Positions 1 to 35,370 of a stretch of DNA of 38,593 bases are shown in pieces. The notes below the pieces were generated by a model, which was given only the letters and a program-made list of their open reading frames with translations, did no database searches and had not been told where the DNA came from. Location: IMG/VR virus record IMGVR_UViG_2778261460_000002; one strand, 5' to 3'. Origin of the DNA: a virus. Its lineage: Duplodnaviria; Heunggongvirae; Uroviricota; Caudoviricetes. Position numbers and translations under genes: made by a program. Each line of letters starts with the position of its first letter. The first letter of the stretch is position 1.

Positions 1-1053
1 TTACGGGGTAATGCCAACCGCTGCCGCCACTTTGTCGCCACTTGGCAGCGTTGCCAGAGGATTGAAACGGAGCGCCGTTTCCAGATGATCCGGTGCCAGA
101 TGTGCGTAACGCATAGTCATTTTTATATCGTGGTGTCCGAGAATTTTTTGTAAGGCCAGAATGTTTCCACCCGACATCATGAAGTGCGCCGCAAACGTAT
201 GGCGCAGAACGTGTGTGAGTTGACCGCGAGGGAGCACGATAGACGTTTTTTCCATCACGGATAAAAATTGAAAATAGCAGTCTGTGAAGAAATTGAACCC
301 ATCAAGCGCCATGATCTCTTCGTAAAGCTCTTTACTGATAGGGATGCTTCTGTTTTTCTTCCCCTTCGTTCTGACAAAGGTAATTCGGTATTTGGTCACC
401 TGTGAGCGAGTAAGATTTACGGCTTCACGCCAGCGTGCGCCTGTGCTTAAGCATATCTTAACTACCAGTGCCAGAATTGGGTCCTGACGTTTGCAATCAG
501 CCAGCAATTCAACAATCTGCTCATGGGTAAGCCATGCCATCTCTTTTTCTGCGATGGTGAATTTTCGCATGTTCTCCAGTGGGTTCGGATACGACCATTC
601 GCCCAGACGGGATAGTTCGCTAAAAACACTACTTAGATAGCTTTGCTCCAGGTTAATGGTGACCGGGCTTGCTCCTTTCTTCCATTTCTCGCTGAAGTAG
701 ATCTCGCCTGTCAGGCGTTTATCTCGATAGTGGGCAAACATTTTAGAGGTGAGATCGGTTGCAAGAGGATTGCCCAGAGCGTCAACCATCAACAGCAATT
801 TGTCATAGACATGCTGCCCAGCTGTCAGAGATTTACCATGTAGTTTGAACCATAGTTCAACCACGTCTTTCAGTGTTCGACGATCCACTGATTCACCCAG
901 CCAGGGCTTTGCTTCGGTTTCTTCCATCGTGTGACGCTCAAAAGCCAGAGCTTCGCCTTTGGTGGCGAATTGTTTACGCACACGACGTCCACTACGTCCG
1001 GCGGGGTAACATTCGCAAAGCCATTTTCCTGTGGTGAGTTTTCGTACTGCCAT
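1..1053 (-). CDS. int: Phage integrase (tyrosine recombinase), P2/186 Int-like
   Basis: 350-aa ORF with tyrosine-recombinase C-terminal motifs (HVLRHTFA, MRYAHL); sits at the prophage end as in P2/186. Stop codon is at positions 3..1. Confidence 0.9.
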   Translation of the reverse strand: MAVRKLTTGKWLCECYPAGRSGRRVRKQFATKGEALAFERHTMEETEAKPWLGESVDRRTLKDVVELWFKLHGKSLTAGQHVYDKLLLMVDALGNPLATDLTSKMFAHYRDKRLTGEIYFSEKWKKGASPVTINLEQSYLSSVFSELSRLGEWSYPNPLENMRKFTIAEKEMAWLTHEQIVELLADCKRQDPILALVVKICLSTGARWREAVNLTRSQVTKYRITFVRTKGKKNRSIPISKELYEEIMALDGFNFFTDCYFQFLSVMEKTSIVLPRGQLTHVLRHTFAAHFMMSGGNILALQKILGHHDIKMTMRYAHLAPDHLETALRFNPLATLPSGDKVAAAVGITP

Positions 1054-1077
1054 AAAAAAGCCCTCATATCAGAGGGC
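1054..1077 (-). terminator. Rho-independent terminator on the minus strand (stem gccctc/gagggc followed by a U6 run) abutting the int start codon
   Basis: Plus strand reads aaaaaa-gccctc-atatca-gagggc at 1054-1077; on the minus strand this is a hairpin followed by six U residues, ending at the int ATG (1053). Confidence 0.55.
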
Positions 1078-1136
1078 TAAATTTAACTGTATATACAACC
1101 AGTAATCAATGTGTGATTACTATGAAACATACATTG

Positions 1137-2813
1137 CTAAGCAACATGCAGTTCATCGTTGGCGGAAGTTGCTGCTTTGCGCTCTTGCTCAATCGCCAGT
1201 GACTCTCTATATTCTTTCGCTTCCGCAAACATTGTCCATTGTGCGTTGATGTTCATATCTTCAATAACAGACTTAATTTCTTTAATATTTACGTTGAAAA
1301 ACTCTTTTCGTGAGTTAATTTTATTGACCTGTTTTTCGTTGAAGACTTTATGCAGATGATTTTCTAATGATGGTGCATCATCACTATAAATCATCGCATG
1401 AACATCGAACGAAAAAGGAACACTAGCATCACCGAGTTCACGAACACGATCAAGTGGTTCAAGGCGGCGTGTCATTCCAATTTTATATACATCTTCGCCA
1501 AATGAGCCAATATTACTAATTATATAAACGTGGCCTGATCTAGTTTGTTGAGCCATAGAAATAGCTCGTTGGTTTTTAGCTTCAGCTTCTTCATATTTTA
1601 ACTGTAGTTCAGCTATTTTTTGCTCTAAAGCTAAGCGTTGTTCTTCATTTGCAAGCATAAGCTCTTTTGTTGCTTTATTTATAGCTTGCTGAATAGCTTT
1701 CTCTTCTTTTTCAGCTTCTTTTATCGCTTTTTCATACTCCCTACGAGCTCTTTCCTCTTCACGAAGTTGTTCTTTAATCCTTCTTTGCTCTTCTTTTTCT
1801 TCGAGCATAATTTCATTAACTGCAACTCCCCATTTTAGCTCGTTGAGTCGAGCTTGAAGATAGATGTCACTTATTTTTGCGGACCTAAAGGCAGAACCAT
1901 TGTAATTTACAAGTTGAAACGCATCTTTTATCTCTTGGGAAAGTTTTCCAAAATTGTTGTGTTTGACTTTTGATAAAATACTGTCAACTCTTCCATTGAA
2001 GGCATCTAAAACAAAGTTGATAGCAGTATTACGCCTGTTTTGTTCAACATAATCACACGAAGCAGCTTTATTAGTTTTTATTAATGATTTTGTTAACTCC
2101 CTGGCTTTTTGTAATTCCTTACCTGCATCTGTAAACTCATAATTTTCTGCCAATTCATCGAGAACGCTACGGTTAGGGATGATCCATTCATCACCATAAC
2201 CTTCAATTTTATTTTTCATTGATTTGGCAACTGCTTCATATTTTTCTGCAAACTCTTTAGCTTCATATGCTGAACCAGCAATCTCTTTTGCTCTTTCTTC
2301 TGCATCGGAAATAATTTTCACTGCATTGTCATTAGCATTTGAGATCAGCTCATTTGCTTTACTATTGGCATTATCAAGACGTTCTTTAGCTTTCAGGCGT
2401 GCATCGCGAGCGTCTTTAGTAATTGCTATAGCTTCGCTATTAGCGTTGCTTATTTTTATCTGAGCTTGATAATTTGCTTCGTTTACTGTCTTAGCAGCCT
2501 TTATTTGGGCTTCTTCTATTTTTTGCCTGGCTATTGAGTCTGCATTTTTTATCTTATTCTCTGCTTCCATCACTGCGCTGTGCAATTCTACGTATTGCCA
2601 TAATGGCGCAGCTCGTCCTTCAAGCTCTGATAGATCTCGTACAGTCTGTGCTAATTCTTCTTGATTTTCTTTCAGTTGGTTGGAAAGGGCTATGTTGTTA
2701 GCTGTCAAGGTATTTATAGCCGCTTTATGTTTTTTGCTTTGCTTAAATAATATTACAGCTAGAATGGGGGCGAGAAATGCTAATAAGAATATAACGATGG
2801 AAAATGAATTCAT
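1137..2813 (-). CDS. Membrane-anchored coiled-coil protein with C-terminal T5orf172 (GIY-YIG-like) domain; DUF4041-type architecture; candidate anti-phage/moron gene
   Basis: 558-aa ORF. N-terminal hydrophobic helix (SIVIFLLAFLAPILAVILF), long E/K/A/Q-rich coiled-coil region, C-terminal segment GHVYIISNIGSFGEDVYKIGMTRRLEPLDRVRELG typical of T5orf172. AT-rich relative to the phage backbone. Start codon 20 nt downstream of the cI stop with a GGA Shine-Dalgarno, same strand as cI and int. Confidence 0.7.
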   Translation of the reverse strand: MNSFSIVIFLLAFLAPILAVILFKQSKKHKAAINTLTANNIALSNQLKENQEELAQTVRDLSELEGRAAPLWQYVELHSAVMEAENKIKNADSIARQKIEEAQIKAAKTVNEANYQAQIKISNANSEAIAITKDARDARLKAKERLDNANSKANELISNANDNAVKIISDAEERAKEIAGSAYEAKEFAEKYEAVAKSMKNKIEGYGDEWIIPNRSVLDELAENYEFTDAGKELQKARELTKSLIKTNKAASCDYVEQNRRNTAINFVLDAFNGRVDSILSKVKHNNFGKLSQEIKDAFQLVNYNGSAFRSAKISDIYLQARLNELKWGVAVNEIMLEEKEEQRRIKEQLREEERARREYEKAIKEAEKEEKAIQQAINKATKELMLANEEQRLALEQKIAELQLKYEEAEAKNQRAISMAQQTRSGHVYIISNIGSFGEDVYKIGMTRRLEPLDRVRELGDASVPFSFDVHAMIYSDDAPSLENHLHKVFNEKQVNKINSRKEFFNVNIKEIKSVIEDMNINAQWTMFAEAKEYRESLAIEQERKAATSANDELHVA

Positions 2814-2833: not shown

Positions 2834-3430
2834 TTAATTTGAAACTATTGTACTTCTTATACAAGCAACTACTTCAATATCAGAAAATGCACATTCAAAG
2901 CTATTCTCTGTACTTGTAATTTTAATCATACCTTTTGGAAGCTTTGTGATTTTTCGAATGGAATAGGTTCCGTCGATGTTGATTAACCAGTGCCCATCAA
3001 GTACTTCAGAAAATTTTTGATCACAAATGTATGTGACGAGCCCATCCTGAATAACAATTGGTGATGAAAGATTTGCAGGAAGAAATGATGAATCGAAGAC
3101 ATATGAACCATCTTCAATCATTTTGCCTGCGGTAAGGCGAAACTTGGCAAGCTCTTCTGTAGCTGCTGTCAGCGAGCTTTGCTTAAGGCCTTGCCCGGTG
3201 GTTAACCATTTCAGTGAGGTTCCTGTTTCAAGAGCACATTGGATTATCCAGTCTGCAGGAAACGTATCCCGCAAATACCTGTTCGCCAGAGTGCTTTTTG
3301 ATACTTCCAAGTGATCAGCTAAAGCCTGTCGTGTCGTAAAGCCATAAGCTTCGACTAATCGCTCAATCGCAGCCTTACCACCTTTATTGGGATTTATTTT
3401 GATCTCATTTGGGTACTTTGATGTTGACAT
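2834..3430 (-). CDS. cI: Immunity repressor, phage 186 CI-like
   Basis: 198-aa ORF divergent from the apl/cII lytic operon; N-terminal helix-turn-helix-like region, size and position match 186 CI. Confidence 0.7.
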   Translation of the reverse strand: MSTSKYPNEIKINPNKGGKAAIERLVEAYGFTTRQALADHLEVSKSTLANRYLRDTFPADWIIQCALETGTSLKWLTTGQGLKQSSLTAATEELAKFRLTAGKMIEDGSYVFDSSFLPANLSSPIVIQDGLVTYICDQKFSEVLDGHWLINIDGTYSIRKITKLPKGMIKITSTENSFECAFSDIEVVACIRSTIVSN

Positions 3431-5103: not shown

Positions 5104-5330
5104 TGGCTGATGCAATGGATCTCGTACAGCAGCGCGTTGAAGAAGAACGCCAGCGCCATATCCGTGCTGCCCGTGCCAAAACGCCGGGCGTGTCCCGCGT
5201 GCTTTGCGTTGAGTGTGAAGCGCCAATTCCGCCAGCACGCCGCCGTGCCATTCCGGGTGTGCAGCTTTGCATTACATGTCAGGAAATCGCAGAGCTGAAA
5301 GGCAAACATTACAACGGAGGTGCTGTATGA
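5103..5330 (+). CDS. TraR/DksA-family C4 zinc-finger protein
   Basis: 75 aa with CVEC-x17-CITC zinc-finger spacing; start overlaps the upstream stop (TAATG). Confidence 0.55.
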   Translation: MADAMDLVQQRVEEERQRHIRAARAKTPGVSRVLCVECEAPIPPARRRAIPGVQLCITCQEIAELKGKHYNGGAV

Positions 5331-6184
5331 GCACCATCTTGAAATGGGCGGGAAATAAAACCGCCGTAATGTCCGAACTGAAAAAACATCTTCCTGCTGG
5401 TCCGCGACTAGTTGAACCTTTCGCGGGTTCCTGTGCTGTGATGATGGAGACGGATTATCCCTGCTATCTGGTTGCGGATATTAATCCTGATTTAATCAAC
5501 CTCTATAAAAAGGTTGCCGCTGATTGTGAATCGTTTATATCTCGCGCCAAAGTTTTATTTGAGATCGCAAACAGGGAGGTGGCTTATTACAACATAAGGC
5601 AGGAGTTTAATTACTCAACTGAAATTACTGATTTCATGAAAGCGGTATATTTCCTGTATCTCAATCGTCACGGTTACCGTGGGTTATGTCGCTATAACAA
5701 GAGCGGGCATTTCAACATTCCCTACGGTAATTATAAAAATCCGTATTTCCCTGAAAAAGAAATTCGCGCTTTTGCAGAAAAAGCCCAGCGAGCAACGTTT
5801 ATCTGCGCCAGCTTTGATGAAACGCTGGCGATGTTGAAGGCGGGGGATGTGGTGTATTGCGATCCGCCTTATGACGGTACGTTTTCCGGCTATCACGCTG
5901 ACGGCTTTACTGAAGATGACCAGTATCACCTGGCATCCGTTCTTGAACATCGGTCATCAGAAGGACATCCGGTCATTGTTTCTAACAGTGACACATCCCT
6001 GATCCGTTCGCTGTATCGCAATTTTACTCACCACTATATCAAGGTAAAACGCAGCATCGGCGTAGCAGCTGGTGAGAGTAAATCAGCAACAGAAATCATT
6101 GCTGTTTCCGGGCCGCGCTGCTGGGTGGGATTTGATTATTCGCGTGGCGTGGATAGTTCTGCCGTGTACGGAGTACGTGCATGA
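5327..6184 (+). CDS. dam: DNA adenine methyltransferase (Dam-like, N6-adenine, probable GATC specificity)
   Basis: 285-aa product from ATG 5327 ([11 protein letters not shown]...); N-terminal AdoMet-binding region (EPFAGSCAV) and catalytic DPPY motif; ATGA overlap with the upstream stop. Confidence 0.75.
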
Positions 6185-8595: not shown

Positions 8596-8689
8596 TTACG
8601 CGGGTTAACAATTCGTGCTCTTAATAATACCAGGCATATCAGGCTGATGAACGTAAAAAAACGTTTTACATCAGTAAGATTATTATATA

Positions 8690-8705
8690 CTGTAAATATA
8701 AACAG
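8690..8705 (+). promoter_or_regulatory. LexA (SOS) box CTGTAAATATAAACAG
   Basis: Exact match to the CTGT-N8-ACAG LexA operator consensus, about 45 nt upstream of the tum-like start, inside an AT-rich promoter-like region. Confidence 0.7.
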
Positions 8706-8748
8706 TGTTTATGCATACAGTATTGTTTGTGGTGTCATAGGAGGAAAG

Positions 8749-8937
8749 ATGCAGGACTATTTTTTGGAGTCTTTGAAGCTCCAGCGCATTGATTTTTTTC
8801 TTAAGCTTGTAGCGGCTAGTGAGTGTAGTGATGAAGAGAAGGGGCTGGCTCTGCAGTGGGTTTCTGAATTGACTGATGAACTCATGGCAAAAATCAGAAG
8901 CCACGAATACAACCGCTCAATGGATGTCATCAGCTGA
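8749..8937 (+). CDS. Small SOS-regulated protein, candidate Tum-like antirepressor
   Basis: 62-aa product from ATG 8749 with AGGAGG RBS (8739-8744); directly downstream of the LexA box; position matches the 186 tum locus. Confidence 0.45.
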   Translation: MQDYFLESLKLQRIDFFLKLVAASECSDEEKGLALQWVSELTDELMAKIRSHEYNRSMDVIS

Positions 8938-8947
8938 GGTGACTTTT

Positions 8948-9181
8948 ATGCGCATTGAAATAATGATCGATAAAGAGCAGAAGATTAGCCAGTCTACCCT
9001 GGACGCTCTGGAGTCCGAGCTTTACCGCAACCTGCAACCCATCTATCCCAAGACAGCTATCCGCATCCGTAAAGGGTCGGCAAACGGCGTTGAGCTGAGT
9101 GGCTTAAAGCTTGATGAAGACAAAAAGCGGGTGATGGAAATTATGCAGCAGGTTTGGGAAGACGACAGATGGCTGCACTAA
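8948..9181 (+). CDS. DinI-family protein
   Basis: 77-aa product MRIEIMIDKEQK...IMQQVWEDDRWLH aligns by eye with E. coli DinI (MRIEVTIAK ... ILQETWE ... W); second gene in the LexA-boxed operon. Confidence 0.65.
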   Translation: MRIEIMIDKEQKISQSTLDALESELYRNLQPIYPKTAIRIRKGSANGVELSGLKLDEDKKRVMEIMQQVWEDDRWLH

Positions 9182-9254
9182 GGAACGTTCCTGATGTAAG
9201 AACTTGATTCTGACGTCAGCAAGGTTGAACAACGAGAGTAGCGAGGCGTTAGCC

Positions 9255-9515
9255 ATGGGTAAAAAAGACAGTAATCACCAGATTATTTATCGGGGCCAGG
9301 TGCTGGAACGGTTTACCCCTGGCGGCTGGGTCTTCTTTCAACGCCCAAAGGAGTGTGGCGGAGGTTTTTAGTTGGGCCGCACCTATGAAGACTGCTTCTG
9401 GCTTGAGCTGGAATTCCCCGTTTCGCTATATGACGGCCTGGAGTTTTTGATGGAAGTCACCAGGGTAGAGCAGAGAAGTGATGAGGTTGACGCGAATTAT
9501 TCCCTGTTTGATTAA
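9255..9515 (+). pseudogene. Small ORF interrupted by an in-frame amber codon (TAG at 9369-9371); probable pseudogene
   Basis: ATG at 9255 opens 38 codons, TAG, then the same frame stays open for 47 more codons to TAA at 9513-9515. Confidence 0.3.
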
Positions 9516-9534
9516 AAATGTATTAGCTTATAAT
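9507..9534 (+). promoter_or_regulatory. Putative sigma70 promoter for the 203-aa gene (-35 TTTGAT/TTGATT, -10 TATAAT at 9529-9534)
   Basis: Perfect -10 hexamer with a plausible -35 at 15-16 bp spacing, about 30 nt upstream of the ATG at 9564. Confidence 0.4.
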
Positions 9535-9563
9535 GGAATACTATTTTTGCAGGTGGGGGCGCA

Positions 9564-10175
9564 ATGGATTTAGTCTTTAAAATTCTGGCTTCGTTGGGTG
9601 GGGTGTCTTTTGTTGCATCTGGCATATTTGTTTGGATCGGGAAAGTTTATTTAGAAAGATATAAGTCGCGGCTAAACAAAGATATTGCTGAATTTCAATC
9701 ACAACTGAGTGCAACTAATGAAAGAATAAAGGCTAAGTTAGACAATTCTGTTTATGTAACGAAAGCGTATTTTGATAAGGAGTTATCAGCATATAGTCTC
9801 ATTTGGAATTCGATGTTTGAAACCAGAGAAAGCGTGCTTAAGCTGAGGCCTGCGCTGGATCATTTTGACCCCAACGAACCATTTGAAGAGAGAAAATTTA
9901 GAAGGTTGAAAGTTTTTTTCGATGCATTTAATACTTTTGTTACAAGTGTTGAGTCTAACAAACCGTTCATCTCACCAGAGGTTTATATAATCTTGGACCG
10001 TTTCCGGAAGGAATGCCTTTCAGAGTCAATATCGTTTCAGCATGGCGATCCAGAATTTGACTGGCAAAATTATTGGAAAGAGGCAGAGTTGAACCGTACA
10101 ACCATCACCAAGCTTTTTGATGAGACGTGTGATGCAATTCGAGACAGGATGCACACATTAACTGTGGTTACGTAG
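9564..10175 (+). CDS. Single-pass membrane protein of unknown function; accessory cargo in the old/tin-equivalent position
   Basis: 203-aa ORF with N-terminal hydrophobic helix (ILASLGGVSFVASGIFVWIG) and a soluble domain with no recognisable motifs; AT-rich; own promoter and terminator. Confidence 0.6.
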   Translation: MDLVFKILASLGGVSFVASGIFVWIGKVYLERYKSRLNKDIAEFQSQLSATNERIKAKLDNSVYVTKAYFDKELSAYSLIWNSMFETRESVLKLRPALDHFDPNEPFEERKFRRLKVFFDAFNTFVTSVESNKPFISPEVYIILDRFRKECLSESISFQHGDPEFDWQNYWKEAELNRTTITKLFDETCDAIRDRMHTLTVVT

Positions 10176-10266
10176 TTTTCCAAAAAGTCTCGATGCCCGC
10201 TTTGGCGATTGTGCATGTCTATGCCGCATGAATCCGCATGATCGTTTGAGGATCGTTTTAGCTGAG

Positions 10267-10290
10267 GCCCGCTAGGAATGGCGGGCTTTT
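10267..10290 (+). terminator. Rho-independent terminator (gcccgc-loop-gcgggc-tttt)
   Basis: Perfect 6-bp GC stem with 8-nt loop followed by TTTT, about 90 nt downstream of the 203-aa gene. Confidence 0.55.
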
Positions 10291-10335
10291 GCTTATGTCA
10301 TGCAGGCGCATGAAAACCACTACATAAAGCGGGCA

Positions 10336-10354
10336 GGCGTGGCGGGGATACGAG
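10336..10354. other. Probable cos site (cohesive-end region) GGCGTGGCGGGGATACGAG
   Basis: Matches from memory the start of the P2/186 cohesive end (GGCG[A/T]GGCGGGGA...), with a GCGCGCT tract after it as in P2; lies between the replication side and the portal gene. Not verified by alignment. Confidence 0.45.
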
Positions 10355-10367
10355 CGCGCGCTCATGG

Positions 10368-10396
10368 TTGAATTAATGAAATTATGGTGTTAAATA
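10368..10396 (+). promoter_or_regulatory. Putative sigma70 promoter for the 232-aa gene: -35 TTGAAT (10368-10373), 17-bp spacer, extended -10 TGtTAAATA (10388-10396)
   Basis: Read directly from the sequence; about 70 nt upstream of the ATG at 10465, which has a GGGAGGAG RBS. Confidence 0.45.
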
Positions 10397-10464
10397 GGCT
10401 AGCTTTTTAAGTCGTGAATATTCAATTTTTCAACTCATTTTTTTCATAGGGAGGAGTAATTGAC

Positions 10465-11163
10465 ATGGTTATGTTAGTGGATGACTGTCCACGATGTGGA
10501 TCACAAAAAATAGCGTTTGATGTTAATGGGCTGAATTGCACTAGGGTTTACAATGCATTGGGCGGGGGTAAAACATACGAGTACGAGGTCTATTGTGTTT
10601 GCCGAGAGTGTCATAAAACGACAATGTTTCTTTGCAGACCTTTAACGAAAAATAAAACTTTAGATGGCTATAATTGGAAAAGTGGAATATTCGGCTTAAA
10701 GGAAGTTGCAGAGGTTGTTAGGCCTATATCACCGGCAGACTTAGCAGTAGAGGAGCCACCAGAGTTCTTACCTGAGCATATCAATAGTGCATATGAGGAA
10801 GGGGCGAAATGTTTGGCTATAGGTTGTTATAATGCAGCAGCAACCATGTTTAGGCTTTGCCTTGATTATGCCACAAAAGGACTTCTTCCTGATGGGGAGC
10901 AAGGGCCTGCGCAAAAAATAAGGAGAAGCCTAGGGTTAAGAATGGAGTGGTTATTTGATAATCATCTACTGCCTGAAGCTTTAAGGGAACTAGCTGAATG
11001 CGTTAAAGATGACGGAAATGATGGAGCGCATGAAGGTATTTTGGATAAAGCTGCTGCTGAGGATCTTGAAGATTTTACCTATCTTTTTTTAGAACGGCTT
11101 TACACTGAACCTCAACGCCTTATCGAAGCCAAGACAAGGCGTGAACAAAGAAGAAACAAATAA
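10465..11163 (+). CDS. Zinc-ribbon protein with DUF4145/HEPN-like C-terminal domain; accessory cargo between cos and the portal gene
   Basis: 232-aa ORF; N-terminal CPRC-x35-CRECH Cys cluster; C-terminal helical region with GNDGAHEG resembling the RN..AHG motif of DUF4145 as recalled (arginine replaced). AT-rich, own promoter. Confidence 0.55.
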   Translation: MVMLVDDCPRCGSQKIAFDVNGLNCTRVYNALGGGKTYEYEVYCVCRECHKTTMFLCRPLTKNKTLDGYNWKSGIFGLKEVAEVVRPISPADLAVEEPPEFLPEHINSAYEEGAKCLAIGCYNAAATMFRLCLDYATKGLLPDGEQGPAQKIRRSLGLRMEWLFDNHLLPEALRELAECVKDDGNDGAHEGILDKAAAEDLEDFTYLFLERLYTEPQRLIEAKTRREQRRNK

Positions 11164-11171
11164 GTTCGGAA

Positions 11172-12209
11172 TTATTCTTCTGAAAGAATATAGGGCGTAA
11201 ATTTAATCACTTCTTCGCCCAGCCAGTCGTTCAGCTCTTGTAGCCTTTTTTGCAAGGGCGTTAATTCATTACGTACAAATACGCGACTGGCCTTCTCCAC
11301 ATCCCCAAATCCCCCAACATTATTAGGCATTATCCCCATCATTTGTGGCGGTACACGGTGCGCAGCCATCATGTCATCGCGGCTGACATTTTTGATATTC
11401 AGAAACTCATCCTTCGCCGCGACTTCTGACAGAGGAATGATCTGAAGGCCGTCCTTTTTGCCGTTCGGCGAGTACATAAACAGGTTACGGAAATTGCCAG
11501 GTCCTTTGGCGCTTTTCATCGCATTACGGAGGTTGTTTACATCCTCCTGGTTCTGCGCGGCGTCGGTCATGTACATGATGAAGCCTGCGTGGCTGCCGTT
11601 AATGTAATACTTGCGGCGGAACAGCGTGGCGGACTCGTTGAGTAGGGCTGACGGAATGGCAGAAAGATAACCGGGCAGGCCGTAGATCTCCTGGTTGATA
11701 TCCGGTTCCATCAGGTGAAAAATGCTGCCTTTCGTGAACTGATACGGTTGCGTGGTCATGCCGTATTGCACAAACCAGTAGGTATCCAGGTCTAATCCGC
11801 GTCGGGTGTATTTTGCCAGGGCAGGTTCAAGGGCGATAACTTCACCGAAGCGGTTCGTGCGTTTCTCCAGGTAGGCGTTACCAAAAACCAGATAGTCCTG
11901 CACAAAACGCGAAAAAGCCTGCTGGCTGAGCAGCGGGTGAGGGATGTAGGTGCTGGTCAGAATGTTGCACTTTACTGCAATCGGGGAACTATGATGCACG
12001 GCAGCGCGGAAGGTGCGCGCCAGTCCGTCAAAGCTGACGGGCGGCTCATACCAGCGGTCCATCTGTACGCATTCCACATAATCCAGCAGTTCTCGGCGGT
12101 CCAGAACAGGAACGGGATCGCCGAAGCTGAATGCTTCGGCTGTAGTTTGACTTTTAAGCTGGATCTGTTTCGTCGCCGCAGCGCGGTTCTTCTTACTCTT
12201 TCCCATCAA
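11172..12209 (-). CDS. Portal protein (P2 gpQ-like)
   Basis: 345-aa ORF adjacent to and overlapping the terminase gene start; first gene after cos as in P2. Confidence 0.8.
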   Translation of the reverse strand: MMGKSKKNRAAATKQIQLKSQTTAEAFSFGDPVPVLDRRELLDYVECVQMDRWYEPPVSFDGLARTFRAAVHHSSPIAVKCNILTSTYIPHPLLSQQAFSRFVQDYLVFGNAYLEKRTNRFGEVIALEPALAKYTRRGLDLDTYWFVQYGMTTQPYQFTKGSIFHLMEPDINQEIYGLPGYLSAIPSALLNESATLFRRKYYINGSHAGFIMYMTDAAQNQEDVNNLRNAMKSAKGPGNFRNLFMYSPNGKKDGLQIIPLSEVAAKDEFLNIKNVSRDDMMAAHRVPPQMMGIMPNNVGGFGDVEKASRVFVRNELTPLQKRLQELNDWLGEEVIKFTPYILSEE

Positions 12210-13972: not shown

Positions 13973-14018
13973 GGCACAAACCTACAACCTTGAATGAAGG
14001 CTTTCCCCGCCTGCGGTT

Positions 14019-14036
14019 TGTGTGGTTGTCGGTACA
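14019..14036. promoter_or_regulatory. P2-type late promoter activator site TGT-N12-ACA in the P/O divergent region
   Basis: TGT gtggttgtcggt ACA; centre about 55-60 nt upstream of a plausible start site for O (ATG 14115). Confidence 0.5.
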
Positions 14037-19083: not shown

Positions 19084-19480
19084 TAAAGCAGTGCCTTATG
19101 TCCGTAATAACCCGGACAAACTGCATCTGTTTGTGGATAACGGTTCGCTGGTTGCCACGGGGGCCAGCTCCATGTCATGGGAGTACCGCTACACCCTGAA
19201 CGTGGTGATAGAGGATTTCAGTGGTGACCAGAATCTGTTGATGGCCCCGGTTTTGCTGTGGCTGCGTGATAACCAGCCCGATGCCATCAATAATCCCGCT
19301 TTACGGGAAAAGTTATTCACCTTTGAGGTGGATATTCTGCGCAACGATGTCTGTGATATCAGCCTTAACCTGCAACTGACGGAACGTGTGCTGGTCAGCA
19401 CTGACGGCACAGTGTCCAGCGTTGAAGCTGTAGCGGAACCCGATGAACCTGAAGAAATGTGGACGGTGAAACGTGGCTGA
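19049..19480 (+). CDS. Tail completion protein R (P2 gpR-like)
   Basis: GTG start at 19049 with AGGAG RBS; product begins MNKPQSLRHALNKAV, resembling the P2 gpR N-terminus as recalled. Confidence 0.65.
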   Translation: MNKPQSLRHALNKAVPYVRNNPDKLHLFVDNGSLVATGASSMSWEYRYTLNVVIEDFSGDQNLLMAPVLLWLRDNQPDAINNPALREKLFTFEVDILRNDVCDISLNLQLTERVLVSTDGTVSSVEAVAEPDEPEEMWTVKRG

Positions 19481-19919
19481 ATTGCAGAAGGTGGACGACT
19501 GGCTGAGTGCCTTGCTGGCGAATCTGGAGCCAGCCGCAAGAAGCCGTATGATGCGCCAACTGGCGCAGGAACTTCGCCGGACACAGCAGCAGAATATCAG
19601 GATGCAGCGCAACCCTGACGGCAGCAGCTATGAACCGCGACGGGTAACAGCACGCAGTAAAAAAGGCCGCATTAAACGTCAGATGTTTGCGAAGCTGCGC
19701 ACCACAAAATACCTGAAAACTGCCGCCAGCGCCGATTCTGCCAGCGTGCAGTTTGAAGGCAAGGTGCAGCGCATTGCCCGCGTTCATCACTACGGCCTGC
19801 GTGATCGCGTCAGTCGCAAAGGACCTGAGGTCCGTTACGCAGAGCGTAAGCTATTGGGTATCCACGATAAAGAATATTATCAAATCAAGGATACCCTATT
19901 TGAATGGTTATCTAAATAA
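19473..19919 (+). CDS. Tail completion protein S (P2 gpS-like)
   Basis: 148-aa ORF after R; start overlaps the R stop. Confidence 0.65.
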   Translation: MAELQKVDDWLSALLANLEPAARSRMMRQLAQELRRTQQQNIRMQRNPDGSSYEPRRVTARSKKGRIKRQMFAKLRTTKYLKTAASADSASVQFEGKVQRIARVHHYGLRDRVSRKGPEVRYAERKLLGIHDKEYYQIKDTLFEWLSK

Positions 19920-19920
19920 T

Positions 19921-19941
19921 ATAAAAATACATCTGTATTTT
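19921..19941. terminator. Bidirectional hairpin (aaaaataca / tgtattttt) between convergent S and the AriB-like gene
   Basis: 9-bp perfect inverted repeat with A-run on one side and T-run on the other. Confidence 0.45.
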
Positions 19942-19944
19942 TTC

Positions 19945-20796
19945 TTATTTCATTTCGTGTGGCATATTTATGGCTTTAATTTTTTCGTGGTAATGATTAA
20001 ACTCAATATGAGCATTGGTAAAATTAGATTCAAATGTATTCATTAAATTGGAATATAATGATTCATATGATAAGGATACTTTTTTTCCATTTTTTTCTGC
20101 AGTTGTGCTAATGTACCTATGTACTGCAGAAAAAAGAAAATGACCTCTAAGCCACTTTCTGTATTCTATCGATTTTGATTTGAAAGATGAATCGATGTTA
20201 TCTGGTTCCACACCTAATTTTTCAATGATGGTGTTTTTGTAACTCGTGATTTTTTGCTCGCAAATTTCATTTGATTTTCTAGATTTCATGAAACGATCTG
20301 CACTGTCACCAATAACTGAAATGCCTTTTCTATAAATATGATTGTATATATCAAGTTTTATTAGGGGTTCCATTTTGGTATAAAAGTCTTCTGTCCAAGA
20401 ATCGACGTTGACATCGTTCATTATCTTTTGAGGTAATTTTCCGAGAGTTTTTATTGCCTTATATATGCCTGTTTTGTCAATAAACGTGTTTTCGATGGAG
20501 TGCCCATAAGTTTTTACAATGCGACTATCAGCGTTTTCCTCATTTTCAAATGTAGTGAAGTCTGCATCACATGCAATTATAATTTGAAGATCTTCATCAG
20601 TAACTCTATCAATATATTTTTTTAATTCTTCACAGCCGCCAACATCTTTGATTTCAACCTTTAATGAACTAGCTTTATTAAAGATGATTTCCCAAAAGCA
20701 AATATCATCTGGGCCTTCAACATAAACCATGGCTTCAGCTTGGTAAAATAAATTCATTACATTTTCTGCTTCGGCAGAATAATGGAAATCATCCAT
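19945..20796 (-). CDS. DUF4435/Toprim-like nuclease, PARIS AriB-like (OLD-family Toprim fold)
   Basis: Open frame extends to 20880 (311 aa). The ATG at 20796 overlaps the upstream stop as ATGGATGA, so 283 aa is more likely. Toprim-like acidic motifs YVEGPDD and IIACDADF. Very AT-rich. Confidence 0.55.
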   Translation of the reverse strand: MDDFHYSAEAENVMNLFYQAEAMVYVEGPDDICFWEIIFNKASSLKVEIKDVGGCEELKKYIDRVTDEDLQIIIACDADFTTFENEENADSRIVKTYGHSIENTFIDKTGIYKAIKTLGKLPQKIMNDVNVDSWTEDFYTKMEPLIKLDIYNHIYRKGISVIGDSADRFMKSRKSNEICEQKITSYKNTIIEKLGVEPDNIDSSFKSKSIEYRKWLRGHFLFSAVHRYISTTAEKNGKKVSLSYESLYSNLMNTFESNFTNAHIEFNHYHEKIKAINMPHEMK

Positions 20797-22048
20797 GAAC
20801 CAATTTCTCCATATCAAAGATTGCATTTCGATATTTAGAAGCCACTTCTGGTGAATGCGTAGCGGCGATAATTTGCGCATTAGGATTAAGTTGTTTGATT
20901 GCAGGTATTATTTTTCGTTGCCATGCAATATGTAGCGATAATTCTGGTTCATCAGTAAGATAGATGAAAGGTTTGTTTTGCTGTAGCAAAGTTTCAATAA
21001 AAAGAATTAATAGCTGTTTTTCACCAGACGATAAATTACTATGGCTAATCGGCCCATGCTCGTTTTCTATTACTAGCTCACCGGAGATAAAATTAAATTT
21101 TTTATCGGTTATGAACTCATGTAATGTTTCTAAAAATAGATTTATAGGAAGAAATATGTTTTTTATTTTCTCCTCGGATTTTAAAGACATCTTTATAATT
21201 CTTTGCGTCTTTCGTAATGCCTCAAATGATCTGTAATCTACATTTAAAATATTTCTGTTATTTTTTTCTGCAAGTCGTAATTCTTCAAATGTTTTGGCAA
21301 TAGATTCAACGTGAAAGTTAATCTTCTTTCTGACATCACTATCAAAAGCTCCAAGCTGAGAATATGCAGCTATTAAATTTCTACGTTCTTTTTCTTTATC
21401 AAAAGAAAAGTTAAATGTGTCATCGATACCATCTTCTTTACTATAAAGAATAGAAGCAAGAACCTCTTTCTGTAATATTGCAGAAACATCACGAGCTCTT
21501 TGTGATAAATAAAGTTGATATTTTGTTAGGTTCTGCAATAATTGTTCTAATCGGTAATCAACAGGGTTGATTAATTTTGAGCCATATTTGTCTCTGATTT
21601 CAAAATCTTCACCGCTTCTAAGTCGGTAAACTGATAGAGAAGATAAAGCAACTAATTTATCTAACTCTAATTTAAGTTTTTCAACGTCTTCCTGATATTT
21701 TCTCCTCATATAAATAGGTAGTCTACGATCTTCAAAGGATCTGATAATATATTTCTTTCTAGAAATTGTATATTCAAACGTAGGCAAAGCTTTAGTTATG
21801 TCAAATTTACTCACAACTTTTATTGTTTTAGTTTTGCTTCCTTCTTTTATTTTTATTGTTACATTATCAAAACTATTCTCATTTAGTGATTCGAGTTCTA
21901 ATGCCAGAACTGAGTGAAGAATATTCATAAAGGTTGTTTTACCGGTCCCATTTCGACCAATAATAATATTTACATCTTCATTAAATGAACATGATGCATT
22001 TAGTCTTCCCCAAAAACCTTCAATCTTGACACTAGATAATCTAAACAT
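20789..22048 (-). CDS. ABC-type ATPase (AAA_15/AAA_21-like), PARIS AriA-like
   Basis: 419 aa; Walker A GRNGTGKTT, Walker B-like IYLTDEPE, H-loop AATHSPEV; translationally coupled to the downstream DUF4435 gene. Confidence 0.6.
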   Translation of the reverse strand: MFRLSSVKIEGFWGRLNASCSFNEDVNIIIGRNGTGKTTFMNILHSVLALELESLNENSFDNVTIKIKEGSKTKTIKVVSKFDITKALPTFEYTISRKKYIIRSFEDRRLPIYMRRKYQEDVEKLKLELDKLVALSSLSVYRLRSGEDFEIRDKYGSKLINPVDYRLEQLLQNLTKYQLYLSQRARDVSAILQKEVLASILYSKEDGIDDTFNFSFDKEKERRNLIAAYSQLGAFDSDVRKKINFHVESIAKTFEELRLAEKNNRNILNVDYRSFEALRKTQRIIKMSLKSEEKIKNIFLPINLFLETLHEFITDKKFNFISGELVIENEHGPISHSNLSSGEKQLLILFIETLLQQNKPFIYLTDEPELSLHIAWQRKIIPAIKQLNPNAQIIAATHSPEVASKYRNAIFDMEKLVHG

Positions 22049-22084
22049 AGGAATCCTTTATTTAGTCCATGAGTAAATGCACTT

Positions 22085-22102
22085 TGTATCATAACTGGCA
22101 CA
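22085..22102 (+). promoter_or_regulatory. P2-type late promoter activator site TGT-N12-ACA upstream of V
   Basis: TGT atcataactggc ACA, 47 nt upstream of the V ATG. Confidence 0.4.
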
Positions 22103-22148
22103 AAACTAAAGAGTTTTTTTATCAATCTTATCTCGGCATGATTAAATT

Positions 22149-24576: not shown

Positions 24577-25916
24577 GCACAAAATTTTATACCCTGCTGA
24601 CGGATATTGGCGCGGCGAAACTTGCCAGCGCCGCCGCGCTCGGTGTGCCGCTAAAAATTACCTATATGGCGGTGGGCGATGGCGGTGGAGTATTGCCAAC
24701 GCCGGACGCAAAGCAGACGGCACTGGTAAATGAGAAACGCCGGGCTGCGCTGAATATGCTTTATATCGACCCGCAGAACAGCAGCCAGATTATTGCCGAA
24801 CAGGTGATCCCTGAAAACGAGGGCGGTTGGTGGATACGTGAAGTGGGCTTGTTTGATGAGTCCGGGGCATTGATTGCTGTGGGCAACTGCCCGGAAAGCT
24901 ATAAGCCGCAACTGGCTGAAGGTAGCGGGCGCACTCAGACCGTGCGCATGGTGCTGATTACCAGCAGCACGGTCAATATCACCCTGAAAATCGACCCTGC
25001 TGTAGTGCTGGCAACCCGCAAGTATGTGGATGACAAGGCACTGGAGCTGAAGGTGTACGCGGATGATCAGATGGCAAAACATCTTGCCGCACCGGACCCG
25101 CATTCACAGTACGCGCCAAAAGCCAGCCCGACATTTACCGGAACCCCCAAAGCGCCAACGCCAGCGGCGGGGAATAATACCACGCAGGTTGCGACCACTG
25201 CGTTTGTACAGGCGGCACTGACGGCCCTTATTAATGGTACGCCAGCCACGCTGGACACGCTGAAAGAAATAGCCGCAGCCATTAACAATGATCCGAATTT
25301 CAGTACCACCATTAACAATGCGCTGGCACTTAAAGCACCGTTGTCGAGTCCGGCACTCACCGGAACGCCAACAGCCCCCACGGCGGCGCAGTCGGTCAAC
25401 AATACACAGATTGCCACTACGGCTTTTGTGAAATCGGCGATTGCAGGAATGGTGGGTTCTGCACCTGCTGCACTGGATACACTGAACGAACTGGCGGCGG
25501 CACTGGGGAATGATCCGAACTTTGCCACGACAATGCTTAATGCGCTGGCAGGTAAACAACCGCTGGACAATACGCTTACCAATTTGAGTGGAAAGGATGT
25601 AGCTGGTCTTCTCACATACCTTGGTTTTGGAGAAGGTGCTAACTGGGTTATGTTACCTGGAGGAATGATAATTCAGCGTGTTTATCTTGGATTTCCTATT
25701 GGCACCAATGCAAGACACATAACTTTCCCCCGGTCGTTTACAACAACGAACTATTCCATCTCAATTAACTGGAATGATATCGGTACTGTAACAACTGAAA
25801 CACAATCACCAGCAAATGTGGCGGTTGTTCATCAAACAAAATCATTAACAGGGGCCAGCATCTGGCAGGCAGGTCCCGGGGGATTTAATGTGGACATTAT
25901 AGCGGTGGGGTATTGA
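24573..25916 (+). CDS. Tail fibre protein H; the C-terminal ~94 codons lie inside the invertible segment
   Basis: 447-aa ORF with repeated [11 protein letters not shown] / [11 protein letters not shown] motifs; contains a hix/gix-like crossover site at 25609-25634. Confidence 0.8.
25609..25634 (+). repeat. hix/gix-like 26-bp recombination site (left): TTCTCACATACC TT GGTTTTGGAGAA
   Basis: Right half GGTTTTGGAGAA matches 11 of 12 positions of the gix right half as recalled; 2-bp core TT. Confidence 0.6.
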
Positions 25917-25917
25917 T

Positions 25918-26346
25918 ATGTACGTATGGAGCGCTAAATCAAATGGCTTTTTCCCCATATCGGAGAAAGAAAAATTTGAGGCATCAGGTCTGTGGCCTGA
26001 TGATGGTGTAATAGTCAGTGAGGAAGAACATAAAAAGTTATTTATGGATATTCCACCAGGAAAACAGATTGGAACACTGAATGGAAAACCAGCACTGATA
26101 GATATTCCTCAGCCGACCAAAAAGGAATTAATAGCTATTGCTGAAGTTAAAAAATCCCAATTACGGGAAAAAGCTGACAGTGAAATATCCTGGCGTCAGG
26201 ATGCTGTTGATGCTGATATCGCAACTGATGAAGAAACTTCAACTCTCACCGAATGGAAGAAATACCGTGTGCTGCTGATGCGTGTTGATACTTCAACAGC
26301 ACCCGATATTGAATGGCCTACGCCTCCGGCAGTTCAGGCCAGATGA
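25918..26346 (+). CDS. Tail fibre assembly protein (P2 gpG / Tfa-like), current-orientation copy
   Basis: 142 aa, C-terminal [13 protein letters not shown] shared with the inverted copy. Confidence 0.7.
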
Positions 26347-26911
26347 CATCCGGCGCGGTGCTGGTATCTGTTGCCGTCACCGCGTCAATGTAATCCAGCA
26401 CGGTGTTAAGTCGGGTTGTTTCTGCCTGAGTCAGTTTCCGTCCGGCCTGTAATTTCAGCTGAATCAGACTAATGGAAGCCATTACTGCATCAATCAGTGA
26501 CTGGCGCTGTGCTTCTGCTGCTTCTACTGCGGCACCGTGTTGTGCCTCAGTATCTGTCACCCATTTCTCACCATCCCATTTATCATATGGCGTTAACGGT
26601 GAAAGCGTGACATAACCGTTTTTGATGGCACCGATATAATCCACTGTAACAGCTGCGCCATTTTCTGTTGAGTAAACAGTCTCATTGCGATGGTCTTCTT
26701 CATGGCTCCATCCCTTACCCGTAAATACTGCCACTTTCCCCGGAATGTTTTCGCCCGGGTCAATACCAGTGGAACAGGCGGGCATACTTACGCCAGTATT
26801 AATATATTCATCAGACCAGCCCGTATATTCAGACGTTACTGCATCATAATAAAAACAACGCATATCACCCGGCACTGTAGCCAGTCCATTTTCATCAAAA
26901 ACAGGTTTCAT
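26318..26911 (-). CDS. Alternative tail fibre assembly protein (Tfa'), inverted-orientation copy
   Basis: 197 aa on the minus strand, C-terminal [14 protein letters not shown]. Confidence 0.65.
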
Positions 26912-27408
26912 TATTTAGCCCTCACCAGAAAGTTAAATGCAATATTTCGCGGTCTGACAGCAACAAAATTCACACCATCACCCACAGAGTTACTGGTGAA
27001 ATTAAATCGTGAAAATCCTGGCTGATTTCCGGCGATGCCATCATGAAAGTTAATTGCGTGTCCCGCACCTCCGCCTATATTCCCGGCAAACTGAGAAAAG
27101 TTTGTAGCTTCCTGCCAGCTTAATAATTCGCGACCACCGTCTGCACCTCGCCCGTCATCCCAGATACGAATGAAATCACCGCGGGCTTCAGGTAATATCA
27201 GCGAAGGAAACACTTTCGCCAGCACAGGATAATCAGTGGCAGAGAATTTCGCGCCGTTGAACTTCAAAAACACCATACTGGACCAGCTGTCGATTACAGT
27301 ATTTGGCATTGCAGCGGACGGCCAGAAGAACGGAACGCCAATAGCTGGAGCACCTTCTCCCAAACCAACGTTTATGAAAATGCAGAGATAACGGCTAACT
27401 GGCATCAT
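26911..27408 (-). CDS. Alternative tail-fibre C-terminal cassette (H'), promoterless, expressed only after inversion
   Basis: Minus-strand frame open through the right hix-like site; my frame arithmetic shows it joins H in frame after inversion about the 2-bp cores. Confidence 0.55.
   Translation of the reverse strand: MMPVSRYLCIFINVGLGEGAPAIGVPFFWPSAAMPNTVIDSWSSMVFLKFNGAKFSATDYPVLAKVFPSLILPEARGDFIRIWDDGRGADGGRELLSWQEATNFSQFAGNIGGGAGHAINFHDGIAGNQPGFSRFNFTSNSVGDGVNFVAVRPRNIAFNFLVRAK
27355..27380 (+). repeat. hix/gix-like 26-bp recombination site (right, inverted): TTCTCCCAAACC AA CGTTTATGAAAA
   Basis: Reverse complement TTTTCATAAACG TT GGTTTGGGAGAA aligns with the left site at about 21 of 26 positions with the same TT core. 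Confidence 0.55.
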
Positions 27409-27435
27409 CCCCGGTTTTTATTCAGGGGATTGATC

Positions 27436-28002
27436 ATGCTTATTGGCTATGTACGCGTGTCAACAAATGACCAGAACACCGATTTGCAACGTAATGCACT
27501 GAACTGCGCGGGATGTGAGCGGATTTTTGAGGACAAAATCAGTGGCACTAAGTCCGACAGACCGGGGCTGAAAAAACTACTCAGGACACTATCGGCAGGA
27601 GACACGCTGGTTGTCTGGAAGCTGGACAGGTTGGGGCGCAGTATGCGGCATCTTGTTACGCTGATAGAAGAGTTGCGCCAGCGTGGTGTGAATTTCAGAA
27701 GCCTGACTGACAGTATTGATACCAGTACCCCAATGGGCCGTTTCTTTTTTCATGTCATGGGTGCCCTGGCTGAAATGGAACGCGAACTGATAGTTGAACG
27801 TACCAGGGCAGGGCTGGCTGCAGCTCGTGCCAAAGGCAGAGTAGGTGGACGCCGTCCTAAGTTGACCACCGAACAGTGGGCACAGATTGGGCGTTTACTC
27901 GAGGCCGGAGAATCAAGACAGCGTATTGCACTGATTTTTGATGTAGGCGTTTCTACCATTTATAGAAAATTTCCGGCAAATAAGATCAATGAATCCCCCT
28001 GA
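27436..28002 (+). CDS. Serine recombinase, DNA invertase of the Hin/Gin/Cin/Pin family
   Basis: 188-aa product from ATG 27436 (MLIGYVRVSTNDQ...); catalytic serine context YVRVST, C-terminal helix-turn-helix; adjacent to the invertible segment. Confidence 0.85.
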   Translation: MLIGYVRVSTNDQNTDLQRNALNCAGCERIFEDKISGTKSDRPGLKKLLRTLSAGDTLVVWKLDRLGRSMRHLVTLIEELRQRGVNFRSLTDSIDTSTPMGRFFFHVMGALAEMERELIVERTRAGLAAARAKGRVGGRRPKLTTEQWAQIGRLLEAGESRQRIALIFDVGVSTIYRKFPANKINESP

Positions 28003-28050: not shown

Positions 28051-28068
28051 TGTGTGAATAACGACACA
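28051..28068 (+). promoter_or_regulatory. P2-type late promoter activator site TGT-N12-ACA upstream of FI
   Basis: TGT gtgaataacgac ACA, 77 nt upstream of the FI ATG. Confidence 0.5.
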
Positions 28069-34982: not shown

Positions 34983-35072
34983 TTCTTCGCAATGGAGAAC
35001 TTTTAAGTTTTCAAAATGGAATAATGCGGTATCATTATTGTGAATTTAGCAAAAATGGGGAGAACTCGAAAA

Positions 35073-35291
35073 ATGATGATTTGCCCACTGTGTGGAAGTG
35101 CCGCCCATACTCGCAGCAGTTTTCAGGTATCTTCATTGACCAAAGAGCGTTACAACCAGTGCCAGAACATTAACTGCAGCCATACTTTTGTTACCCATGA
35201 AACTTTTGTTCGTTCGATTGCAACGCCAAAAGAGTCAAATCCGGTTCAGCCGCATCCAATGAAATCAGGACAGGTGGCGCTCTCTCTTTGA
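35073..35291 (+). CDS. ogr: Ogr/Delta-family zinc-finger late transcription activator
   Basis: 72-aa product MMICPLCGSAAHTRSS...QCQNINCSHTF with the Cys4 zinc finger (CPLC ... CQNINC) characteristic of P2 Ogr; terminal phage gene. Confidence 0.8.
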   Translation: MMICPLCGSAAHTRSSFQVSSLTKERYNQCQNINCSHTFVTHETFVRSIATPKESNPVQPHPMKSGQVALSL

Positions 35292-35370
35292 CTCTGCCGC
35301 CAATTTGTCGCCATCGTTAAAAAACACTGCTTCTAACATCATGATTTTAAAAGGCATAAATTTCAGGCAA

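Follow-up and report, generated by a model that had tools for sequence, protein, structure and literature searches.

Several AT-rich blocks in one temperate phage genome may be parts of a single defence system, or they may be unrelated cassettes that share a carrier. The stretch of DNA described here, IMG/VR virus record IMGVR_UViG_2778261460_000002 (38,593 nucleotides, referred to at its full length as the window), raises this question. From its genes, the window holds an intact temperate E. coli prophage of the 186-like type (P2 family, Peduoviridae), with cargo slots at its operon boundaries. A preliminary description of the same DNA had taken AT-rich insertions at the int-cI, A-cos, cos-portal and S-V junctions for a compact defence island whose effectors might act in combination. 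The reading preferred here, with a probability of roughly 0.85, is that this intact prophage has four independently exchangeable cargo slots, and that each cassette most likely protects the lysogen alone. The homology of the cassettes, their positions, their low guanine plus cytosine (GC) content and their variability among relatives were observed directly. The cargo genes are as follows (aa, amino acids).

1137..2813, minus strand: SNIPE / PD-lambda-1 homologue, 558 aa, with a transmembrane helix, DUF4041 and GIY-YIG (cargo slot 1)
9564..10175, plus strand: membrane-anchored protein, 203 aa (cargo slot 2, left of cos)
10465..11163, plus strand: ZnR-DUF4145 protein, 232 aa, with a Cys4 zinc ribbon and a DUF4145/HEPN-like domain (cargo slot 3)
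19945..20796, minus strand: AriB, 283 aa, DUF4435/TOPRIM (cargo slot 4)
20789..22048, minus strand: AriA, 419 aa, ABC-type ATPase (cargo slot 4)

Base composition and extent of the cargo

The AT-rich blocks lie where the preliminary description had put them. In a sliding profile of 500 bp windows, with the cargo set restricted to windows wholly inside the cargo as defined here, the backbone has a GC content of 53.4 ± 4.6% (n = 273 windows) and the cargo one of 36.3 ± 4.6% (n = 45, maximum 44.8%), so that the profile, which could have refuted the preliminary reading, clearly sets these blocks apart. The values for the individual blocks are 36.8% (1137-2813), 38.6% (9564-10175), 41.6% (10465-11163) and 30.9% (19920-22148), and those for the genes are 36.8% for SNIPE, 38.6% for the 203-aa gene, 41.6% for ZnR-DUF4145, 32.4% for ariB and 30.9% for ariA. 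The match to P2 and 186 at the DNA level is too divergent for the mapping of slot boundaries, which were taken from close E. coli relatives. The resulting cargo intervals are 1054-2833, 9254-10210, 10362-11171 and approximately 19920-22084, which sum to about 5.7 kb, or 16% of 35.3 kb. This had been considered an unusual load for a phage of this size, but the figure of about 16% compares with 15.6% in P2, and about half of the sampled relatives have a filled S-V slot.

Variability and assortment of the cassettes

Relatives were sought in 5,426 complete E. coli genomes. The int of the window is present in 1,136 of these, accompanied by SNIPE and the same cI in 165, while the others have different genes or a different repressor. 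The A-to-Q region is matched in 1,298 genomes and has the same content in 26; every complete A-to-portal row that was sampled lists extra genes there. The flanks of the S-V junction are found in 1,055 genomes, with this PARIS between them in 18. Of 40 matches taken at even intervals, 38 were informative; among these, 18 junctions are empty, and the filled ones hold DUF6216, AIPR, GmrSD, SIR2, another ATPase or hypothetical genes. Conserved flanks around content that varies among close relatives, which is what defines a hotspot, are found at cI-int, left of cos, at cos-Q and at S-V, and not at 8596-9181. Of the junctions supposed to vary among related P2/186-like prophages, the four slots do so, and 8596-9181 is conserved backbone, an outcome that the preliminary description had itself named as one that would refute its reading.

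The closest phage record, vB_EcoM-813R9 (ON470620.1), is 97.5% identical to the window and has the same SNIPE and PARIS, but it is without 9254-10210, which holds the membrane protein, and it has a different sequence at 10362-11260, with a Hypoth_Ymh/TIGR02391 gene in the cos-Q slot. The RefSeq prophages of E. coli strains CUVET and WP8-S17-ESBL-05 share 99.7% identity with the first 25 kb of the window and have all four cargos.

This distribution bears on the possibility that the four blocks are one cooperating defence island with membrane, nuclease and ATPase parts. All four blocks do lie within one 35 kb element. In addition, the first 25 kb of the window, a stretch that takes in all four slots, has full-length matches of 99.7% identity in 8 of the 5,426 genomes, which thus keep the full combination. 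Layered protection is plausible as well, in that the three recognisable systems would act at different stages of infection. However, seven of the eight full-set genomes belong to one clonal dog/hospital lineage. SNIPE and PARIS occur with a different cos-Q gene and without the membrane protein, the membrane protein occurs with six other cos-Q cargos, and the ZnR-HEPN gene is accompanied by other cargo in A-cos or stands alone in elements unrelated to this one. The frequencies of PARIS (18/1055 genomes) and SNIPE (165/1136) differ, and SNIPE, PARIS and RAZR each work when cloned alone (PMC13190303, PMC9122126, PMC13017515). Because the modules assort independently among relatives, there is no support for a combined mechanism, and the combined action of effectors that had been suggested is at odds with the presence of each module without the others in close relatives. 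A single cooperating island is thus very unlikely, and separate cassettes in exchangeable slots are preferred.

The SNIPE homologue between cI and int

The first slot lies between two genes of the prophage backbone.

1..1053, minus strand: integrase, a 350-aa open reading frame (ORF) annotated as phage integrase in near-identical prophages; left end of the prophage
2834..3430, minus strand: CI immunity repressor, 186-type (Pfam Phage_CI_repr 8e-32, Phage_CI_C 4e-27)

The protein between them matches the PADLOC profile PD-Lambda-1 (PDLC03976) at E 4.7e-120, with residues 114-550 aligned to positions 35-481 of 491. Its residues 4-24 (FSIVIFLLAFLAPILAVILFK) are an unbroken hydrophobic stretch, read from the sequence as an N-terminal transmembrane helix. 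The central domain is DUF4041 (Pfam PF13250, 46.6 bits against a cut-off of 27, residues 267-322), and residues 427-520 make up a C-terminal GIY-YIG nuclease (Pfam T5orf172 61.8 bits and MUG113 70.7 bits, both above their cut-offs). A PDB sequence search with SNIPE gave no match, and a residue-by-residue alignment is thus not possible. RefSeq labels this protein either 'DUF4041' or 'SNIPE associated domain-containing protein'. The system first named PD-lambda-1 has been renamed SNIPE; it is a nuclease of the inner membrane, associated with ManYZ or tape measure protein, that cuts phage DNA as this is injected (PMC13190303).

The SNIPE gene starts 20 nt past the cI stop, preceded by the Shine-Dalgarno sequence AAAGGA, and would be co-transcribed with cI from the lysogenic promoter. 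The repressor is 33% identical to 186 CI (E 4e-35), and its gene has a GC content of 39.9%. The AT-rich stretch beside int thus takes in the true repressor gene. Despite being AT-rich, cI is part of the backbone, and the insertion here is limited to 1054-2833.

There is a LexA-like box, TACTGGTTGTATATACAGT (1 mismatch), on the minus strand at 1086-1104, between the SNIPE stop and a terminator-like hairpin (1078-1059) that has the int start codon inside its T-run. The box may be a chance occurrence, with approximately 0.4 such matches expected per window, or it may affect the expression of int downstream of the cassette.

Two slots on either side of cos

The second and third slots lie on the two sides of cos, in the interval between A and the portal gene Q.

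9256..9516, plus strand: pseudogene of a phrog_2100-type 85-aa ORF, with an in-frame TAG, in the slot left of cos
10336..10354, plus strand: cos, GGCGTGGCGGGG / GGCGTGGCGGGGATACGAG, the sole 186/P2 cos-core match in the window
11172..12209, minus strand: portal gene Q, from the portal annotation in relatives; backbone flank of slot 3

The cos site was located with the shorter 186/P2 core GGCGNGGCGGGG; the P2 cos 19-mer has no match in the window at up to 3 mismatches. The sequences that flank cos match the two ends of the 186 genome, and all of the fetched P2/186-like loci that span the region have the core motif. In the closest phage relative, a cos core of approximately 150 bp (10211-10361) is kept between two variable gaps, and 9254-10210 is the only variable part of the A-cos interval. 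The same 203-aa gene is found across cos from a P-loop nucleoside triphosphatase, AIPR, a retron reverse transcriptase with STM3845, an OLD-like ATPase-TOPRIM, AAA_21 with RloB, or an unknown gene. In relatives slot 3 may instead hold TIGR02391, and ZnR-DUF4145 is also found beside the portal with a different three-gene cargo left of cos. The separation of the A-cos from the cos-portal insertion in the preliminary description is valid once the SOS operon is removed from the former, since cargo on either side of cos swaps independently. This would suggest that the 'gpA-gpQ hotspot' of 186-like phages is two independently exchanging slots, split by the conserved cos core of about 150 bp. In this 186-like lineage the hyper-variable slot is the one on the portal side of cos, which would be the extreme left end of the packaged genome. 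Rightwards from the cos cut site, the cos-Q cargo begins after approximately 55 bp. At the other end of the slot, 8 bp separate the ZnR-DUF4145 stop from the convergent stop of the portal gene, too few for separate terminators.

In slot 2, the pseudogene matches phrog_2100 at E 9e-38 on its conceptual translation, and the RefSeq annotation of an identical locus flags it as a pseudogene with an 'internal stop'. No other gene in the cargo slots was seen to be decayed. The 203-aa protein beside this pseudogene has no Pfam, NCBIfam or PADLOC match. In its predicted model a long N-terminal transmembrane helix is followed by a four-helix bundle, for which there are only generic fold neighbours. Its family, from a profile search, contains 915 clusters at E ≤ 1e-3 and 384 at 1e-10, with conserved residues E73, R95-P96, P134-F135, E154 and R193/R195. 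Neither Pfam nor PADLOC has a model that fits a consistent set of the family members. Two distant members of the family are on short contigs, one adjoining Phage_AlpA and the other adjoining DUF4411. RefSeq sometimes mislabels the 203-aa protein 'valyl-tRNA synthetase', a name that rests on a sub-threshold coiled-coil match. A GC-rich hairpin with a T-run at approximately 10267-10294, 3' of the membrane-protein gene, is visible by eye and absent from the scan output. Homology to 186 Orf97 was considered and ruled out, there being no similarity; the two are positional analogues only. From its location, the best guess is that the 203-aa protein is a membrane-acting exclusion or abortive-infection protein.

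In slot 3, the ZnR-DUF4145 protein matches Pfam DUF4145 at 30.3 bits against a cut-off of 23.1, and residues C8, C11, C46, C49 and K181...H189 are invariant across 25 homologues. The motif CxKDDGNDGAHEG is invariant in all 25 aligned homologues, which range from Enterobacteriaceae to Nitrospira. The AlphaFold2 model (predicted local distance difference test score, pLDDT, 83) shows an N-terminal domain rich in beta structure and a C-terminal one that is helical. The top PDB matches of this model in Foldseek are the HEPN proteins 1o3u, 2q00 and 1wol, and these are weak (E 0.035, template modelling score 0.6 on the target); PDB sequence searches with the single sequence and with a profile gave no match. 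In distant bacteria it is a stand-alone gene in mobile-element contexts. RAZR (PD-T7-4) is an abortive-infection HEPN RNase that is switched on by ring-forming phage proteins (PMC13017515). What the slot-3 protein shares with RAZR is its stand-alone form, a length of about 210-230 aa, and a layout in which a linker joins an N-terminal Cys4 zinc ribbon to a C-terminal, helical DUF4145/HEPN-like domain that has a conserved His (PMC13017515).

PARIS between S and V

The fourth slot is bounded by the last gene of one late operon and the activator site of the next late promoter.

19473..19919, plus strand: tail completion gene S, from the annotation of relatives; final gene of the O operon and left flank of slot 4
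22085..22102, plus strand: TGT-N12-ACA Ogr/B late-activator site of pV, retained beside V; right edge of slot 4

The genes ariA and ariB are adjacent and co-oriented, and the stop of ariA overlaps the start of ariB by 8 nt (ATGGATGA). AriB matches Pfam DUF4435 at 90.9 bits, against a cut-off of 27, and the PADLOC AriB profile at E 3e-24 (positions 3-230 of 236). AriA matches Pfam AAA_21 at 82.3 bits and AAA_15 at 64.6 bits, and PADLOC AriA at 5.7e-40. Under the PARIS detection rule (Rousset 2022), which takes AAA_15 at 32 bits or more or AAA_21 at 27 bits or more together with DUF4435 at 27 bits or more, the pair is a PARIS system. In PARIS, AriA senses anti-restriction proteins such as Ocr and releases AriB, which cleaves tRNA-Lys (PMC9122126, PMC11464382). 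A relationship of AriB to P2 Orf30 was ruled out, as there is no similarity.

Where a relative has nothing in the S-V junction, the TGT-N12-ACA site of pV, which is conserved, comes straight after the S stop. With this site still present at 22085-22102, the cassette of the window falls beyond the end of the O operon and short of pV. The last S codons differ between S-V cassettes. In P2, where the equivalent activator site of pV is annotated, orf30 lies antisense between S and this site, which is the same geometry as that of PARIS here.

Matches of TGT-N12-ACA are present at 13961-14036, 22085-22102 and 28051-28068, exactly upstream of the P/O, V and FI operons. They match the late promoters of P2, which has four that depend on Ogr/B. 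The late-transcription layout is thus intact around the insertions.

Weighing the defence assignments

A number of observations weigh against the reading of each cassette as a protective unit of its own. The best PDB sequence match of AriA is the solved AriA (8ux9/8v45, E 6e-17), over residues 245-411 only, and AriB has no PDB sequence match at E ≤ 0.01; the system is therefore a divergent PARIS. The match of ZnR-DUF4145 to the PADLOC PD-T7-4 profile is weak and partial (E 1.2e-6, 26 bits, positions 39-165 of 211). Moreover, its family has an invariant K181-x7-H189 (CVKDDGNDGAHEG) where RAZR has R146-x7-H154, the equivalence of these residues being drawn from their spacing and the PD-T7-4 profile coordinates, without an alignment to RAZR. 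RAZR has Arg146 at the place where the family has an invariant Lys 8 residues before the invariant His, and because Lys replaces the catalytic Arg, the protein is not assigned to RAZR; by its architecture it appears to be RAZR-like. For the 203-aa protein, location is the sole link to defence. The preliminary description had also credited the blocks with their own translation or transcription signals. A Shine-Dalgarno sequence is indeed readable ahead of each cargo gene, but scans for promoter and terminator consensus sequences around slots 1-3 gave counts at or below shuffle expectation. The term compact defence island largely suits SNIPE, PARIS and the RAZR-like protein; the 203-aa protein, which has no defence match, may or may not belong with them.

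It is possible, with the odds somewhat against it, that at least one of the two uncharacterised cargo genes (those for the 203-aa protein and the Lys-variant ZnR-HEPN) has a new anti-phage function, with gpA-gpQ made up of two slots.

An SOS operon after gene A

Between A and cos, the order is LexA box, 62-aa ORF, DinI-like ORF, the 85-aa ORF with its in-frame stop, and the 203-aa gene. The first three of these are as follows.

8688..8707, plus strand: LexA box TACTGTAAATATAAACAGTG (TACTGTAAATATAAACAGT at 8688-8706), a perfect TACTGT-N8-ACAGT match upstream of the SOS operon
8749..8937, plus strand: 62-aa ORF, first gene of the SOS operon (phrog_698, E 6e-38); backbone
8948..9181, plus strand: DinI-like protein, 77 aa (Pfam DinI, 1.3e-23); SOS operon

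The chance expectation for a LexA box is 0.39 matches at up to 1 mismatch, and 186 (p95) and 12 other fetched P2/186-like loci have the box in this position. The 62-aa ORF follows gene A in every related prophage whose genes were examined. It is a candidate antirepressor; similarity to the N-terminal half of 186 Tum was not detected. The DinI-like ORF is 41% identical to residues 71-145 of 186 Tum, its C-terminal half (E 9e-25). A DinI-like gene and a hypothetical gene are annotated in almost every E. coli relative, while the DinI-like gene is missing from eight fetched loci, with none called in the Enterobacter, Citrobacter and Klebsiella loci. The GC content of the block 8596-9181 is 43%, in the lower tail of the backbone range. 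Because the LexA box, the 62-aa ORF and, for the most part, the DinI-like gene recur in relatives, 8596-9181 belongs to the backbone, and the block would be a 186-type SOS operon with a regulatory role, not cargo. In 186 (NC_001317), a LexA-controlled p95-tum-orf97 operon is in the same position after A and is followed by cos; Tum of 186 is a single protein of 146 aa, whereas the window has a 62-aa ORF and a separate 77-aa DinI-like ORF. The claim that the AT-rich blocks are unrelated to the backbone holds for the four variable slots, but the SOS block after A, conserved in relatives, and cI are both backbone.

That an AT-rich part of the prophage is regulatory raises the question of whether the blocks are mostly not defence at all, consisting of phage genes for lysogenic conversion or regulation (SOS control, superinfection immunity, host-physiology morons). 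Part of the region is true to this, with the LexA box, 62-aa ORF and DinI-like gene forming an SOS operon and cI being AT-rich backbone, and the 203-aa protein is at the position of 186 orf97 in the SOS operon and has no defence annotation. Against this, three of the cassettes match validated defence families with strong to moderate significance, and in relatives the slots hold other defence genes, including retron, GmrSD, SIR2, AIPR and OLD-like genes. Cargo of a mostly regulatory or lysogenic-conversion kind is unlikely, and protection of the lysogen by the individual cassettes is favoured over it.

The prophage backbone and its other variable regions

The identification of the window as P2/186-type (Peduoviridae) is based on the layout of its ORFs and on megablast against phage records. 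From the left, the genes are int (minus strand), cI (minus strand), apl/cox, cII, fil, DUF5347, DUF2732, a TraR/DksA-like gene, dam and A. These are followed by Q and P (both minus strand), O, N, M, L, X, holin, lysozyme, lysA/B/C, R and S, and then by V, W, J, I, H, G, an invertible tail-fibre segment with its invertase, FI, FII, E, T, U, D and ogr. This order agrees with the annotation of ON470620.1 and of near-identical RefSeq prophages, and the regulatory module is 186-like, of the CI/Apl/CII/Fil type. The right flank (35.3-38.6 kb) is E. coli ybjL-ybjM-grxA, which is found in 5,420 of the 5,426 complete genomes, and the left neighbour in relatives is rcdA; the prophage thus sits between rcdA and ybjL. 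Its attL is just beyond the edge of the window, to the left of int.

A defective prophage with decaying, functionless remnants as its cargo would account for the in-frame stop in one small slot-2 ORF, and the closest deposited 'phage' record is a truncated prophage. The backbone from int to ogr is nevertheless complete, every gene being present and intact in the window, as it is in the RefSeq prophages of 99.7% identity, and the four main cargo ORFs are full length against their family profiles. The tail-fibre segment is opposite to that of a near-identical prophage, which implies recent recombinase activity, and defence pseudogenes are described as rare in these elements in a study in Nucleic Acids Research (NAR 2026, PMC13586616). 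Decay is therefore extremely unlikely as an explanation, and cassettes that protect the lysogen remain the better one.

The invertible tail-fibre segment (25609-27380, 41-46% GC) is bounded by 32-nt inverted repeats and lies beside a serine invertase (27430-28002). Window positions 25609-26599 align reversed to the 99.7%-identical CUVET24-CCU22 prophage, and 26600-27348 differs in sequence; the two prophages are thus in opposite tail-fibre switch states. This segment is a fifth variable region, absent from the preliminary description. A Dam-type (D12 class) adenine methyltransferase gene is present in the early operon at 5267-6184, just before A, with 46% GC. In relatives this position holds dam, a PAPS-reductase-like gene, or both, and dam may have a counter-restriction function and mark a further variable spot.

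Possible action of the cassettes

Expression of the cassettes in the lysogen, their activity and their target ranges are presumed from these comparisons. Slot 1, inside the lysogenic cI-int operon, would supply SNIPE, a membrane-anchored GIY-YIG nuclease of which the characterised member cuts siphovirus DNA at injection. Slot 2, downstream of the LexA-controlled SOS operon, would supply the predicted membrane-anchored four-helix-bundle protein, alongside the decayed small ORF, and slot 3, between cos and the portal gene, a stand-alone ZnR/HEPN-like protein with the architecture of RAZR. From slot 4, between S and the pV activator site and antisense to the late genes, PARIS would act through the sensing of anti-restriction proteins by AriA and the cleavage of tRNA-Lys by AriB. 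The cassettes would have been acquired separately, by recombination at hotspots, and each would act on its own at a different stage of infection by a competitor. The prophage would in this way be a clean example of stacking, with SNIPE directed at injection, PARIS at early anti-restriction proteins and the RAZR-like protein probably at late, ring-shaped structural proteins.

Comparison with P2, 186 and published hotspots

Cargo hotspots are textbook knowledge for P2-like prophages, and orf97 of 186 is an infection-blocking gene. In P2 (NC_001895), orf30, fun(Z), orf91, tin and old together take up 5,226 bp (15.6% of its genome). The A-cos interval holds orf91, tin and old, fun(Z) is found between G and FI, there is nothing between int and C, and none of these cargo genes is related to the cargo of the window. 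In 186, cI and int overlap with no cargo between them, and the S-V and cos-portal intervals are empty. The cos-portal interval is approximately 190 bp in both phages (187 bp in P2) and empty.

Three leads remain: the membrane-protein family that lacks annotation, the ZnR-HEPN family with Lys in place of Arg, and the gpA-gpQ hotspot split by cos. Otherwise there is little discovery value in this locus, as the defence content of P2-like elements has been catalogued across thousands of them. Patterns of this kind, including several filled hotspots in one prophage, have been published, and RefSeq already contains the same arrangement at 99.7% identity over the 25 kb compared.

Rousset 2022 (PMC9122126) places the gpA-gpQ hotspot next to cos and gives about a third of the unknowns cloned in its screen, from slots like those that hold the two gene-family leads, as defence genes. 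The iLund4u preprint (Egorov 2024, 10.1101/2024.10.15.618418) describes a third hotspot near CI, with hotspot islands averaging 9% of the phage genome. In de Sousa (NAR 2026, PMC13586616), the integrase-primase hotspot is given as 8% and that downstream of gpL as 16%, and of the P2-like prophages that carry defence genes 10% have systems in more than one hotspot. The window is like the published hotspots at gpA-gpQ, from integrase to primase near CI, and in the tail genes downstream of gpL, with AT-rich and rapidly swapped cargo. NAR 2026 adds an int-att hotspot, for which the corresponding attL of the window is beyond its edge. The parts of these papers considered here treat gpA-gpQ as one hotspot, whereas in the window there are two independently exchanging slots, one on each flank of cos.

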